From Candidatus Rifleibacteriota bacterium (GTDB lineage: Bacteria; Muiribacteriota; Ozemobacteria; Ozemobacterales; Ozemobacteraceae), in contig JBNJGH010000060.1 of the NCBI GenBank assembly GCA_051747585.1, positions 1 through 21,265 on the forward strand: a stretch of DNA of 21,265 bases, in the 5' to 3' direction. The notes beneath the pieces were generated by a model. That model made no database searches, had not been told where the DNA came from, and was given only the letters and a program-made list of their open reading frames with translations. Both the position numbers and the translations under genes were made by a program. Positions 1 through 21,265 of this stretch are shown here, one piece after another (within the stretch, counting starts at the first letter, position 1; every line of letters begins with the position of its first letter).

Positions 1-57
1 AAGAGCTGCTTCAACTCTTTTATTACGGGGCAGATCTACACCTGCTATTCGAGCCAT
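1..57 (-). CDS. rpsM: 30S ribosomal protein uS13, 5' part only (runs off the window)
   Basis: Not in ORF track. Manual translation from ATG at 57 gives MARIAGVDLPRNKRVEAAL, the canonical S13 N-terminus. An AGGAGG SD lies upstream and the gene follows rpmJ as expected. Confidence 0.97.
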   Translation of the reverse strand, partial: MARIAGVDLPRNKRVEAAL

Positions 58-7621: not shown

Positions 7622-8254
7622 TTAAAAGGGAAGCCGGCCTGCGGTCAGTTCGCGCTGCAGAGCTCGAATATTTTCGAGTTCACGCAGTTTGGCACGCTTG
7701 GTTTCCTTAAGATTAGCAATTTGAGAAGCTTCATTTAATCCCATTTCAGACAATTTGTCAAGGAACTTCTTTCTAATTGTACATTTTGGGTCTTTTAATC
7801 TTTTAGAAACGGCTCTAAGCTGGACTTCTTCTTTACCTTTTGAATTTCTAAGTTTTTTAGAAACTTCACTTCTGATTGTTTTAATCAGCTCAGCAACTTT
7901 TTTATCGCAACTGGTGCGGATTTCCTTATCAACCATTTTAGCTTTTCTGGTAAGGCGACTTTTAAGCTGGGAAATTTTTTCACGAAGTGGTGTCTTCATT
8001 GAATCAATTTTCTCTTCCTTAAGCAAAGCATCATATTCATCTTTAAGCATCTGATGAAGTTTAGCCTTTTCCATTCTGGTCAGATAGGTTTTTACGCGAG
8101 CTATGTTGCGGCGCACAATGCTTATCCTCGAGGGATTAGACAACTGACCTGTTACCGCCTGAAATCTCAGGTTGAACAGTTCTTCTTTGTAATGTTTATA
8201 TTTTAGTTCGAGTTCCTGCTCGTTCAGTTCAGAAAAATCTTCTCGACTCTTCAT
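7622..8254 (-). CDS. rpmC: 50S ribosomal protein uL29 with ~147-aa C-terminal extension
   Basis: Residues 1-63 match L29 ([30 protein letters not shown]). The frame continues to 210 aa and ends 13 nt before rpsQ. Position between rplP and rpsQ. Confidence 0.93.
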
Positions 8255-9364: not shown

Positions 9365-10116
9365 TATTCTTTACCTCCCTGGGTTTTAGTAGTTTTTTTG
9401 CTGGTTTTATTTGCTTCAGCCTTTTTGGTAGCTGTTTTTTTGCTTTTTGCAGTACCCTTTTTAGCTGTAGCTTTGGTTGTGGTTTTCTTTTTGCCTTTAG
9501 CGGCAGTTTTCTTTGTGCTCTGTTTGTCATCTTCTACTTCAAATTTAGACATAGAGAATTTTTCACGCAGAACTATAGTTGCATGAGAGGTTCTTTTTAA
9601 GATGCGGCAGGCACGTCCACGAGCCCTGGCCATAAATCTTTTCATTACGGGGCCGCCGTCTACGGCGACTTTGGCAATATAAAGATCATCGGCTCTGAGG
9701 TCATGGTTATTACCAGCATTGGCAATAGCTGATTTCAGTAGCTTAAGCAGAATTGGAGAACCGCCTTTTGGGAGGAACTGCAAAATGTCGAGTGCTTCAT
9801 CAACACTTTTACCACGAATTTCGTCTGCTACCAGTCTTAATTTTTTAGGACTGATTCGAATGTTTCTTACTACAGCCCTTGGCATTTCAAGCTGTTCAAT
9901 CAATTTGGATTTTTGTTTCCAGCTGAGAGAACCAACTTTTGGATAAACTTTTTCAAGTTTGCCGTTTGGCTGTAACTGGCGTTTATAAAGACCAACCTTG
10001 GTCAGAATAGTTTCAATTTTAGCCCGGCTGTTTTTTGTATCAAGGCCCTTGATCATACGAAGGCCGTTATACAGATCTACATCATCGGGAATGGTTACAC
10101 CTACAAGTCGTAACAT
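9364..10116 (-). CDS. rplV: 50S ribosomal protein uL22 fused to an N-terminal uS13-like domain and a C-terminal Lys/Thr/Ala-rich tail
   Basis: Residues ~78-186 are L22 ([45 protein letters not shown]). AAGGAG SD precedes ATG at 10116; no SD before internal Met78. Confidence 0.93.
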
Positions 10117-10134
10117 TATTATTATCTCCTTCCC

Positions 10135-12842: not shown

Positions 12843-13154
12843 TCAGAGCATCTTGATTTCGATGTTAACACCGGAGGGAAGGTCCATATTCATTAACGAA
12901 TCGACAGTTTGACCTGACGGATTAAAAAGATCGATATTTCTTTTGTGAATTCTCATTTCGAACTGCTCACGCGAGTCTTTGTTTACGAAAGGAGAACGCA
13001 GAACAGTATATTTCCGGATTTCGGTCGGCATAGGAATTGGACCGGAAATTTTTGTTCCAGTACGTTTTACGGTGTCGCAAATTCTGGCAACTGATTGATC
13101 AAGAAGGCGATGATCAAAAGCCTTTAAAGACAACCGCATCTTTTGCTTGGCCAT
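12843..13154 (-). CDS. rpsJ: 30S ribosomal protein uS10
   Basis: [35 protein letters not shown] motifs. Confidence 0.98.
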
Positions 13155-13197
13155 TTTAAAATCCTCCTTGTGGATTTCAATAAAAGTTGATAACCGT

Positions 13198-15327
13198 TTA
13201 GTTGTCGCCGGCTATCATCTGCTGGGGTGGCTGGCTGTAGCCAAACACACCGAGAATACGTTCAGTGACACTTTGTGGGACTTCATCATAATGAAGCAAT
13301 TCCATGGTAAAGGTTGCACGACCCTGCGAGAGAGATCTCAGCTGGGTTGAATAACCAAACATGTCAGAAAGTGGTGAATGACATTCAACGATTCTCATGT
13401 CATTACGCATTTCCATATTAATTACTTTTCCTCTTCTGGCATTAATATTGCCGATAATATCGCCCATATACTGTTCAGGCGTTTCAATTTCAACCCTCAT
13501 AAAGGGTTCGAGCAAAACGGGCCCGGCACAGCGCATTGCTGACTTCATAGCTTCATAAGTGGCAATTTTAAAGGCAATGTCATTACTGTCGCTTTCATTA
13601 TAAGAACCGCCGACCAGACGCACATCAACATCTACCACAGGGAACCCTGCGAGAATGCCATCGTTCATTGCGTCTCTGCATCCTTGATGAATAGATTCAA
13701 CATATTCTGCAGGAATTTCTTCGGCTTTTGCCTTATTAGTAAATCTGAAGCCTTTACCTCTTTCCAGGGGTTCAACTTCAATAACTACATGAGCATACTG
13801 ATTCTTGTTACCAAGAGTCTTTTCAAACAGATTTTCGCCTCTTCCCCTGGTGGTAATTCCTTCTTTATAAGCAACCTGAGGCTTGCCAACCGAAGCTTTA
13901 ACCTTAAATTCTCTAATAATTCGGTCAACAATTACTTCCAGATGTAGCTCCCCCATACCAGAGATAAGGGTTTCACCGGTATCTGGATCAATTTTTGCTT
14001 TAAAAGTAGGATCTTCATCCATCAGGGCTTCAAGAACATCACCGAGTTTAGATAAATCGGCCTGGGTTTGAGGCTCAATAGCAACTGAAATAACAGTTTC
14101 AGGAAACGTAATTTTTTCAAAAGTAACAAACCGGGGGTCAGTAGAAAGTGTTTCGCCGGTGGCAACTTTTTTAAGACCTATAGCTGCAACTATATCACCT
14201 GCTTCAACCCTTTGCAGGTCTTTGCGCTGATTAGCATGCATCTGTAAAAATCTGCCTATCCGTTCTTTTCTTCCTTCTTTACTGACATTGTAAACAACTT
14301 TTCCGGCGTCGAGTGCTCCGGAGTATACTCTAAGGTATGCAAGCTTACCAACATGGGTATCGGTTGCCACCTTAAAAACCAGAGCAGCAAATTCGGCTTC
14401 AGGGTCAGCAGGAACTTTAACTTCTTCTTCTTTTTCCAGGGTAAAACCTGTTGCCGCTGGAATATCCAATGGAGAAGGAAGATAATCAACAATGGCGTCA
14501 AGAAGGTCTTGAACACCTTTGTTTTTAAAGGCCGAACCGCACATAACCGGCACAACCTTATTGTTAACGACTGCTTTCCGCAGAACCCGGCGGATCAACA
14601 CTTCGGGAATTTCTTTTTCTTCGAGATAAAGCTCGAGAATCTCATCATTAAAGGAACTGAGAGTTTCCAGCATTTGTTCACGAGCCATTTCGACCTGATC
14701 TTGCAAATTTTGAGGAATTTCACACTTTTTGAATTCGGCCCCAAGAGACTTGTCCTCTTCGAGGTTCCAGATATGAGCCTTCATGGTAACCAGATCAACA
14801 TGACCGGCAAAACTATCTTCGCAACCAATCGGTAAAACGACAGGCAAAGGTTTAGATTTCAGTCTTTCTTTGATCTGGGTAACAACCCGCTCAAAATTGG
14901 CACCTACGCGGTCCATCTTGTTGACGAAAGCGATTCTTGGGACTCTGTAGTTTTCGGCCTGGCGCCAGACGGTTTCAGATTGAGGCTGAACTCCGGCAAC
15001 GGCACAGAATACAACTACAGCACCATCGAGAACTCTAAGCGATCTTTCCACTTCGGCAGTAAAATCCACGTGACCGGGCGTGTCTATAATATTAATGTCA
15101 CAATCGGCCCAATGGCATTTAGTTGCCGCGCTTGTTATGGTAATTCCTCGTTCCTGTTCTTGAACCATCCAGTCCATAACAGCTGTTCCTTCATGAACCT
15201 CGCCCATCTTATAGGCTTTACCGGTATAATAAAGAATACGCTCGGTGGTTGTGGTTTTTCCCGCATCAATGTGGGCCACAATACCGATATTCCTTATATT
15301 TTTCATTTTTGAACTACTGGTAGTCAT
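13198..15327 (-). CDS. fusA: Elongation factor G with divergent domain IV
   Basis: [46 protein letters not shown] and LRSLSQGRA motifs; follows rpsG. Confidence 0.96.
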
Positions 15328-16418: not shown

Positions 16419-19400
16419 TCAGCCTTCGTCGGTTTCAGCTTTTTTCATGAAGAGGTCTTCTTCGAGCTGATCAAGATTGGCTTTATCGCTTGAGTCGACA
16501 AAAAGTTCGTCTGTTGGACCTTCGGCAGCTTCAATTTCAGCTGGAAGATTTTTGAACAAAATATCTTTCGATATGGAGATACCTGTTCCAGCCGGAATCA
16601 ATTTACCGATAATAAGGTTTTCTTTGAGACCTTTAAGATAATCGACTTTTGATTTAATTGCAGCCTTGGTAAGAACTCTGGTTGTTTCCTGGAAGGATGC
16701 GGCGGAAATAAAGCTATCTGTAGTCAGAGAAGCTTTGGTAATACCCTGAATCATAGGAACGCCGACAGGTGGTTTTTTACCTTTTTCGATCAGTTTATTA
16801 ACCTTTTCTTCAAACCTGCGAACATGTACTGATTCGTTAGGCAGAAATTCTGAATTACCAGATTCGGTAATTACAACTTTTCTAAGCATCTGACGAACAA
16901 TTATTTCGATATGCTTATCGTTAATGCTTACGCCCTGATCACGATAAACTCTTTGAATTTCATCCATCAGATAGCGTCTAACGAATGGCAGGCCAACAAC
17001 CTTAACAAGTTTTTTCGGGAAAACTTTACCATCAGTAAGAACGTCGCCAGCTTCGATATATTCGCCATCGTGAACTACCAGAGCGGTTGCACCAAACTGA
17101 ACCCTTACAGGTTTTTCGACACCGCTGTTGAAATCTCTGATCGCAACTGAGCTACCGGAGACATGAACAATGCCGGATTCTTCAGCAATAACTGCTTCTT
17201 TTTTGGGTTTTCTTACTTCAAACAATTCGGCTACACGTGGCAGACCCTGAATAATGTCTGTTGTTTTTCTTGCTGAGGCGCCCCATTTTGCAAGGATTTC
17301 ACCTTTTTTAACTTTTACGCCATCTTCAATTCTGAGTTCAGCGCCATCCATTATCTGGTGGGACTCACCCGGTTGAACGACAATGGTTTTGATTGTACTC
17401 TTAACCTTGCCTTCTTTTGATACATCGTGCTCAAGTAAAACAACACCTTTATTTTCGGCTTTTAATACTGCCAGAACATGACCTTGTTTGATCTTGTCAC
17501 CGTCTTCTACTCTTAAACAGCCTGCAGCTACCATGTCTTTGGTAATTGCATATTTTTTGTCTTTAATTACTTTCTGACAAATTCTAATGCCAACAGAGCC
17601 ATCGGAGTCTTCTACCTGTGAATAGGTCTGGAAAGGTATAGGTGCTATGGTCAGCTCACCGTCTTTTACGACAGTAGGAGGAAATTTCAAGCTCAAAGTA
17701 GCTGGATAACTGAATTCCACGCCACTATAAACCAGAATCTTTTCGATTATTTCTTCACAGATGATTTTGTTATAACCGTAGATATAGTTAACTTTACCAG
17801 CTATTTCAGAAGTCATAGGTTCAATGTCACTAACCAGTTTATCACCGGCTTTAACTACCTGACCATCTTCTACTACAACTGATGCGCCGGCTGGAACCGG
17901 ATACTGAACTTTAATATCATCTTCACCGATAATATTTACAGCTTCCTGTTCACCCTTAATTATATAAACTTCTCTGATTGAACCACGATTTTCTTCAAAC
18001 AAAGCAAACAGATCGTCATCAATTTCAGTGCCGCTTTCGGCCACAACTTCATCTGTTTCTTTATTGATTGCAGCTCTTGCCAGAGTGGCTCCTGGAAGCA
18101 CGTCTATATCGTCACTGATCAGATGTACCCTGGCCTCGGATTTAATGTCGGTAAGCTCGATAGTGCCATCGATTTCTGCTTGAATAACCAGTTTGGTAGT
18201 GAGTTCACCATCTTCTGCAACATCGCCACCATTAGGTATACGACAATTCTCTTTAGGCCTGAGAATTACGCCACGAGGAACCGGGTATTCGATTTCGTTT
18301 TTAACAATAACTCTTTTACGGTCAAGAGTTTTGTTGGCAGCGCTCTTTTCGTTAATTACTCTTACAACACCAGAGATTGGGGCTATAAGCGACAGGTTTT
18401 TATTCTGTTCATCTATGGCAGCAGCCATTTCGCCTTTGAATTCGTATTCTTCTTCAACTTCTTTAGCAATAGTAAGTTTAGCACCACCAGAAGACAGATT
18501 TAAGGTTCCTTCTACTTCAGAAACGATAGAGAGCATTTTCTGCCCCGGATATACCTCGTCACCATTTTTAACGTTCAATATGACACCAGAGGATTTAACC
18601 GTTCCGATTTTAGGTTCTTTAACGCTTTTTGGCATGTTGTATTCTTTGCGTTCGCCTTCTTTATCATCGGTTGGGAAAACAAAGATCATACCATTGTCGC
18701 TGATAACCTGTTTGTTTTTTATGCGAACCTTTTCAAGTTTTACTATACCATCGGTTCTGGCAATAGCAGCATGAGATTCTGCCGAAATTTCAGCCAGCAG
18801 GTTACCGGCATGTATAATTTCGTTATCTTCTACTTTTAAAGTTGCGCCCTGTGGTATTTTATAATCTTCGATAATGAAGTCTTTGGTAACAGGATCAAAA
18901 TCCTGGGTAAGTATTCTGATAATACCTTCATCAGAAACAACCATACCATCTTTCTGTTCGATGTCTTCGTAGATTACCTCACCAGTGTATCCTGAAACTA
19001 CGTTATTCGGATTGTATTCAGCAACAGCCTTACCCGGAGTTACTTTATCACCATCTTCTATACGCATTTCAGCGCCGACCGGAATATGGAGACGGTCTTT
19101 TCTGCCGCTTTTACTTTCGACCCCGAGGAAGCCACCAACAACAACTGTTTTGATATTGCTGCCAAATTCACTCTTATCAAAAGTTTCAATTCCTGAACCA
19201 ATTTCGAATTTCGCTCTATCTGAGACTTTAGCCAATTTAAGATTATCAAACCTTGCAAGGCCAGAGCTTCTTGCTTTTATATACGAACGTTGAGCCAGAG
19301 CAACACCACCAAGGTGGAATGTTCTCATTGTCAACTGAGTTCCCGGTTCACCGATCGACTGGGCTGCAATAATACCAACTGCTTCGCCGATATCTACAAC

Positions 19401-21231
19401 TTTGCCGGTCGCCAGATCTGATCCGTAGCACATCTGACAAATACCAACTTTAGAGCGGCAGGTAAGAGGTGAGCGCATTACAATTTTACTGCGAACTTTA
19501 ATTTCTGGAAATGCACCTTCGCCGAGTCTTTCAAGAACATATTCGTTAATTTCACGGTCGGGTCTAAGAATAATTCTGTTACTTCTGGGATCAATAAGCT
19601 GTTCGGCACAGATCATGCCGGGTTTCAGTTCATTGAAGGGAATTGGGAAATCACAATTTGACTCTATTTCACTTGCAATTTCATTGGTGCAGTATAGGCC
19701 TGCTTCAAGCTTAACCGTTTTCTTATTGACCTTAATAGAAAGGGTTCTACCGGTAGCTGGATTTACTATTGGTTTTGCCAGAACCCTTCCGGCTATCCTG
19801 TAACGAATCGGAACAACGATATCATCGATCATGATATTATTTGAAGTTCTGTTCTGACGAATTGGAGAGACTTCGACACCTAACTGACTTCCACAGTCCT
19901 GTTTAGTGATAACAACATCCTGAGCAACATCTACCAGTCTTCTGGTAAGGTAACCGGAGTCAGCTGTGCGCAGCGCTGTATCTACAAGACCTTTTCTTGC
20001 ACCGTATGTTGAAATGAAGTATTCAGACTGGTTCAATCCCTGGCGGAAATTTGATTTAATCGGGAAAGCAAGAATATCACCACGTGGATTCGACATCAGA
20101 CCACGCATAGCGGCCAGCTGTCGGATCTGTTGCATATTACCTCTCGCACCGGAGAACGCCATCATGTACACGGGATTAAATTCACCCAGATGAGCACTGG
20201 CTTCAAATTCCTGGAGAAGGTCATCGGTAACGTCTTCTGTTGCTTTTGTCCAGACATTAACTTCAGCCTGTTTTCTTTCATCACGACTGATTTCACCTTT
20301 GCCCCAACGTTCGCGTATCTTGACAACTTTTTTATCAGCCTGGTCAAGAATTTCATTTTTCTTGGGCGGATCAATCATATCAACAATAGAGATTGTAAGA
20401 CCGGAATAGGTAGCAAATTTAAAGCCAAGAGCTTTAAGTTTATCAAGAGTTTCACCAATTATTGAAAGTGAATACATGTCGAACAATCTCTTAATAAGAC
20501 TGGACACATTCCCTTTTTTAACCTGAAGATTCTGGAAAGGGAAACCGGAAGGCAGATTATCATTAAAAATAACTCTACCAATAGTAGTTCTTAAATAACT
20601 GTCTCTGACAGAATCTTTTTTGTCGTCTTCATCATACTGTTCAACCACCAGAGAATCTTTTTTGAGATATACCGGCCACTGAAGGCTGAACTGATTTGTT
20701 TCATAAGCATTCAGAGCTTCCTGCAGGCTATGGAATACAGGTGGGCGATAAACAATAATCTTATCTACTTTAGCTTTATTAAGCAGATTAATAGTTTCTT
20801 TTGAGTCCAGAACCGTTCCTGCAGGAAGATCGTCATCGACATCATCAGCCAGTTTAAAGTTAAACGGCCTGCCTTCGTTCAGCAGTAATTTTTCCCAGGT
20901 CAACCCCTTTTTGGTTTTGAGTTCAGTAACCGGATAACCATCGCCTTCAGGTTTTTCGATTGTCAGGTAGAACAAACCAATGGTCATATCCTGTGATGGG
21001 CTGGTAACTGGATTACCATCCGCTGGTTTTAGAATATTATTGCTGGAAAGCATGAGTAAACGTGCTTCGATCTGAGCATCAACCATAAGCGGAACATGCA
21101 CAGCCATCTGATCGCCATCAAAGTCAGCGTTATAAGCAGCACATACAAGAGGATGTATCTGAATCGCCTTACCTTCGATAAGAACGGGTTCGAATGCCTG
21201 GATGCCAAGTCTATGCAGTGTGGGAGCGCGG
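16419..21231 (-). CDS. rpoC: DNA-directed RNA polymerase beta-prime subunit, 5'-truncated, with very large trigger-loop insertion
   Basis: [13 protein letters not shown], catalytic [27 protein letters not shown], Zn site [58 protein letters not shown]. The N-terminal ~420 residues expected are not in the window. Confidence 0.97.
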
Positions 21232-21265
21232 CTGAAGGGGAAATGGGAGATAAGCATGTCGGGTT

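Follow-up and report, generated by a model that had tools for sequence, protein, structure and literature searches.

Organization of the locus

The DNA analyzed here (the window) is a stretch of 21,265 nucleotides from Candidatus Rifleibacteriota contig JBNJGH010000060.1. It carries the minus-strand ribosomal cluster rpoC-str-S10-spc-alpha of a 4.1 Mb genome. Its rplV gene lies between rpsS and rpsC in the S10 cluster and encodes the single uL22 match of the genome. At its N-terminus, this uL22, a protein lining the exit tunnel, carries an additional folded domain resembling the first half of the small-subunit protein uS13. Such a fusion, with the extra domain formed by residues 1-77, had been proposed from the window sequence (the original prediction), and was borne out by the analyses described below. 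Coordinates are given in Table 1.

The uL22 moiety was readily recognized. Pfam L22 (PF00237) covers residues 81-184 at 134 bits (cut-off 28), TIGR01044 scores 130 (cut-off 73.65), and the core gave a structural match in Foldseek (E 1.2e-13). The C-terminal tail displays a mean pairwise identity of 0.38, and tails of similar kind are found in unfused relatives. The nearest named loci belong to Ca. Rifleibacterium, Ca. Ozemobacter and other Ca. Riflebacteria, with 62-85% identity across the fused protein. A further locus (L072), which shares 86% identity with the window protein and has a uL29 of 210 aa, is titled Ca. Methylomirabilis sp. and is probably a mislabelled Riflebacteria bin.

Table 1. 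Positions of the fused gene and related features in the window.
Feature	Position	Strand	Remark
rplV open reading frame, 250 aa	9364-10116	-	open reading frame
Shine-Dalgarno AAGGAG	10126..10131	-	9 nt upstream of ATG at 10116
uS13-derived N-terminal domain, residues 1-77; two short strands, three helices, helix-two-turn-helix (H2TH)-type fold	9886..10116	-	
Basic beta-hairpin insertion, Riflebacteria-type, about residues 44-58	9943..9987	-	DSSP strands 45-48, 54-57; alignments
Junction Met78-Pro79	9880..9885	-	Pro invariant among fused forms
uL22 core, residues 78-186, tunnel hairpin intact	9559..9885	-	PF00237 E 2.5e-39; TIGR01044 above cut-off
Low-complexity Lys/Ala/Thr-rich C-terminal tail plus stop codon	9364..9558	-	
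rpsM (uS13) 5' end, presumed donor	1..57	-	
uL29 conserved C-terminal extension, ~145 aa	7625..8062	-	gene 7622-8254; Pfam L29 residues 6-59 only

The extra domain is a partial copy of uS13

The duplicated part begins at residue 1 of uS13 and runs to about residue 62, with an identical end point in every fused protein. It is always followed by x-Pro, then by the first uL22 strand. Two types of fused protein were distinguished: long forms, as in the window, and short forms. The junction proline is present in 24/24 long and 14/14 short forms; of 103 unfused proteins from the database, 96% have Ala at this position, and in 20 unfused proteins of the phylum Pro does not rank among the three commonest residues there.

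In AlphaFold2 models, the domain had a predicted local distance difference test score of 83 alone and 89 in context. Its best fold matches were uS13 structures, with root mean square deviations of 1.1-1.8 Å across 58-61 residues. HHalign linked it to uS13 at 98% and 93% through intermediate homologues, and at 81% (E 1.3e-5) directly. The profile or structural match to S13/H2TH on which the original prediction depended was thus recovered by both routes. The proposed profile search with the single window protein failed: neither Pfam nor NCBIfam gave an S13 family match at E<=10. Used as a phmmer query against the PDB, the window domain returned five matches, all uS13, at E values of only 0.84-1.3, and the S13 N-terminal profile gave 5.0 bits on the window sequence, a score equalled by 19 of 2000 shuffles. 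It is therefore structure and intermediate homologues, not the single sequence, that make the match significant.

The two proteins share their fold, helix order, hydrophobic core and M-x-R-x-x-G-x-x-x-P N-terminal pattern. The original prediction described a gap-free alignment to the organism's own S13. This holds for roughly the first 25 residues, with 6 identities among positions 1-19, but the remainder requires two insertions: one of about 4 residues that follows the turn, and a basic segment of 12 residues or more predicted to form a beta-hairpin at residues 45-57. The hairpin is absent from uS13 and from the short forms, varies in length and has a mean pairwise identity of 0.44. Moreover, residues that never vary among 22 uS13 sequences, namely K13-R14 and the final Gly of the Y-G-I-G turn, are replaced in the fused proteins. 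In uS13, K13-R14 and the GIG turn bind 16S rRNA. Long forms carry a net charge of +3 to +7 (mean +5.4) with invariant R3, K23, K56, K69 and W66; short forms range from +1 to -6. Because the motifs are lost and the short forms are neutral or acidic, these sequences make RNA binding through the former uS13 face less likely.

Against the Pfam S13 family (PF00416), short forms reached 21-24 bits (cut-off 31), over model positions 1-73 only. With sub-cut-off scores and without the C-terminal basic half of uS13, the domain falls outside that family, and the fusion is a novel variant of uL22 rather than a uS13 family member. The window protein was also compared with the PRK12279 fusion of L22 to an unknown domain (NF008917), and membership was rejected: it scored 107 bits against a cut-off of 526, the match began at residue 80, and the extra domain of PRK12279 lies at the C-terminus.

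A separate rpsM begins at 57-1, and the overlapping contig C135 contains the complete gene (120 aa), in agreement with the proposal that the domain is a duplicate. Altogether, a duplicate of the 5' half of rpsM, spanning about codons 1-62, has been fused in frame to rplV.

Start site, translation and selection

In the window sequence, the start at residue 1 is preceded by a ribosome-binding site, and none is found before Met78. The 23 family genes of the first search have similar purine-rich sites upstream of the point where the extension starts. In all 23, the match begins at residue 1 and the upstream start yields an extension of 77-87 aa. Position 78 is encoded by ATG in 14 genes, by GTG in one, and by ATT, ATC or ACG in eight, which excludes translation from Met78 across the family. 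The original prediction placed the beginning of uL22 at Met78; the junction does lie there, but in ordinary uL22 the corresponding position is residue 2 (a Glu in 84% of the 103 unfused proteins), and Met78 is therefore not the ancestral start.

Public uL22 records of the Riflebacteria type (P0004, P0280-P0286) start at an internal Met or within the domain. These starts are probably start-codon miscalls, and may be the reason why the domain has been overlooked.

The extension is conserved nearly as well as the core. Mean identities over 23 sequences are 0.70 and 0.76, respectively, residues 1-43 reach 0.79, and the ratio of nonsynonymous to synonymous polymorphism in nine gap-free genes is 0.14 for the extension and 0.16 for the core. 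The fusion product is under purifying selection while uS13 remains intact.

The same junction occurs in 42 genomes. It is also bridged without mismatch by one contig from a metatranscriptome library; since such a library may contain DNA, this contig is weak support. The original prediction named three weak points: the profile or structural match, a possible start at Met78, and the junction itself. All three were checked, and the fusion reading held. We consider it very probable that the domain derives from uS13 and is translated as a fusion with uL22.

Distribution and origin

Among 87 genomes of the phylum, a uL22 match was found in 43 of 51 family genomes, and the domain lies directly upstream in 42 of these. 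In the sole exception (L171, G046:C520), uL22 lies on a contig of 1.9 kb, which falls outside the family in trees and is probably contamination. Outside the family, 32 genomes have uL22; the N-terminus was read in 26, three of which carry the domain. These three have short forms and retain full uS13. Neither the short forms elsewhere in the phylum nor the enlargement of bL17 described below figured in the original prediction. Among the matches listed, no carrier was named outside the phylum, most short forms having no taxon name, and bit scores fall from 254 to 170 between fused and unfused proteins.

In approximately unbiased tests, a grouping of all carriers was not rejected (p 0.157 for concatenated ribosomal proteins without the uL22 core; p 0.056 for the uL22 core). 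The best trees require three changes for the domain, and do not resolve the deep branches. Since proline and breakpoint are common to the carriers, one origin is favored; a single origin with losses, or transfer, would best fit the shared junction.

A different, basic N-terminal extension of uL22, of about 41-48 aa, was observed in Wallbacteria family f3 (L065-L067, L069), where it is kept in 6/6 genomes read.

Other exit-side proteins, rRNA and nascent-chain factors

Two further proteins of the large subunit are enlarged in the family. uL29 measures 210-212 aa in 13/13 complete family loci (210 aa in the window) against 61-87 aa in 24/24 loci of other families. Its extension is Lys/Glu-rich, family-specific, and ends in a conserved G-R-L-P-F motif. 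bL17 is 179-250 aa long with an internal insertion in 22/22 loci read; in the window genome (L239:1495-2115, G000:C135) the insertion comprises ~90 aa with a conserved core. An Atlas search with this insertion gave no lead. The insertion core appears tandemly duplicated in one genome (G013, L282). In an unfused family (f2, L263-L267), bL17 matches span 381-426 nt versus 291 nt in ordinary genes, indicating a smaller insertion.

In 23S rRNA, the helix 25 (H25) region is 50-52 nt long in 4/4 family genes versus 35 in E. coli, but it is also long in two unfused families. All 10 of the aligned 23S sequences from the phylum share a 78-nt insertion at E. coli positions 260-300. No expansion was confined to carriers in this comparison, which covered four family sequences and no full-length sequence from short-form lineages. 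bL31, bL32, peptide deformylase, trigger factor, Ffh and signal recognition particle (SRP) RNA were each detected in 5/5 genomes tested.

Elsewhere in the window, fusA is directly followed by rpsJ with no tuf between (13154-13198); contig C19 contains an EF-Tu-like match, and C309 a second EF-G-like gene. RpoC (16419-21265, minus strand) extends past the window at its 5' end and is at least 1614 aa long; its C-terminal half contains a very large insertion.

Possible role of the domain

The fused protein presumably assembles as normal uL22. This would place the domain close to the tunnel exit, on the solvent side of the 50S subunit, and its orientation relative to the uL22 body would probably be fixed. 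The 16S-binding face of uS13 seems to have been lost, and the domain could provide a structural cap that is always in place, or a surface for docking proteins, in the region bound by peptide deformylase and other nascent-chain factors. A passage of bioRxiv 10.1101/2022.04.20.488877 places the deformylase site in the uL22/bL32/rRNA groove. In Riflebacteria, the basic hairpin may have been gained later, forming a joint exit-side platform with enlarged bL17 and uL29. The three enlarged proteins occur together, suggesting a rebuilt ribosome surface. Whether the uL22 domain, the 145-aa uL29 extension and the bL17 module form a protein-rich vestibule that alters access of deformylase, trigger factor or SRP is more doubtful.

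We assign the cap or docking role a probability of roughly 45%. Several observations weigh against it. Besides Pro79, the uL22 core had no column flagged as hydrophobic in fused forms only. The domain alone gave no Foldseek match at E<=0.001 (best E 0.011). The three short-form genomes have uL29 of normal length and no bL17 insertion, so that the enlarged partners cannot explain the origin of the domain. Nor is a lost factor being replaced, since bL31, bL32, the deformylase, trigger factor, Ffh and SRP RNA each occur in 5/5 genomes tested. Finally, the basic long forms would suit rRNA binding equally.

This last point leads to the idea of a clamp, in which the H2TH fold, with the Riflebacteria hairpin, grips a 23S surface helix near uL22 such as the lengthened H25. 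The charge and invariant residues of the long forms and the longer H25 are consistent with it, as is a plastid uL22 extension described in part of PMC5694952 as supporting an rRNA-stabilizing helix. However, short forms are neutral or acidic and no 23S expansion is restricted to fused lineages, making a clamp rather unlikely; the cap or docking role is favored over it because the RNA motifs have decayed and the short forms are acidic. Neutral entrenchment would require no partner at all: an accidental fusion would have been kept since uL22 folding, stability or translation came to depend on the domain. Donor and acceptor are separated by about 10 kb within one cluster, the functional motifs of uS13 have decayed and most families of the phylum lack the domain. 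Nevertheless, residues 1-43 are conserved like the core, including apparently exposed charged residues, which exceeds the needs of stability, and we regard this explanation as unlikely.

Mimicry of uS13, through binding of uL5, bL31, uS19 or 16S head RNA (on another ribosome, or as free proteins) or of an mRNA leader, might serve disome contacts or autoregulation. The fold is retained, bL31 is present and uS13-bL31 bridges are mentioned in a section of PMC7530986, but identity to uS13 is low and its invariant residues are lost. In addition, with only 43 nt between fusA and rpsJ, an S10-type leader directly upstream is ruled out (other leaders were not examined). Mimicry thus appears improbable. 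Least credible is a domain unrelated to uS13 (from another H2TH protein or by convergence) or untranslated (a Met78 start or assembly artefact). The former could account for the missing family match and a first HHalign to full uS13 of only 21%, the latter for the shortened public records; set against the junction, start-site and structural data above, both seem very improbable.

Bacterial ribosomal proteins usually enlarge through tails or loops. Here, a folded domain has been relocated from the small-subunit head to the large-subunit exit, and uS13, the short fusion and the long fusion with hairpin survive as a graded series, a traceable case of ribosomal protein-mass gain. The fusion can serve as a relationship marker among candidate lineages and is a concrete target for cryo-electron microscopy. 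It also exposes an annotation error, as records starting at an internal Met conceal the domain.

Comparison with known systems

No description of a uS13N-uL22 fusion was found in the full-text literature, a search of titles and abstract openings in which subscription journals were mostly outside and survey supplements could mention the fusion. Compared with uS13, the fused domain lacks the C-terminal half, has altered K13-R14 and GIG turn, contains two insertions and is joined to a 50S protein. Extended uL22 proteins, namely plastid uL22c, PRK12279-type C-terminal fusions and Lys/Ala-rich tails, likewise combine a normal core with extra solvent-side mass; according to a passage of PMC5694952, the extra domain of plastid uL22 helps to place a helix of a neighboring protein. 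Unlike these extensions, the addition here is a folded domain copied from a ribosomal protein of the opposite subunit.

Duplication and re-use of a small-subunit fold is also seen in mL66 and mS40, which the consulted part of bioRxiv 10.64898/2026.10.06.756942 presents as mitoribosomal bS18m paralogues, mL66 being named a large-subunit protein. These are free-standing organellar proteins, whereas here a partial duplicate is fused to a universal protein in free-living bacteria. At the chloroplast exit site, uL23c, uL24c, uL29c and bL32c are enlarged together (in a section of PMC5694952), a joint enlargement of exit-side proteins as in Riflebacteria. Chloroplasts have lost SRP RNA and truncated their rRNA, whereas the genomes tested here keep SRP RNA, Ffh and trigger factor. 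If a vestibule does exist, it would resemble that of mitoribosomes but in free-living bacteria, the short forms of sister lineages preserving its first step. The nearest precedents are the plastid uL22/uL29 extensions and mitoribosomal mL66.
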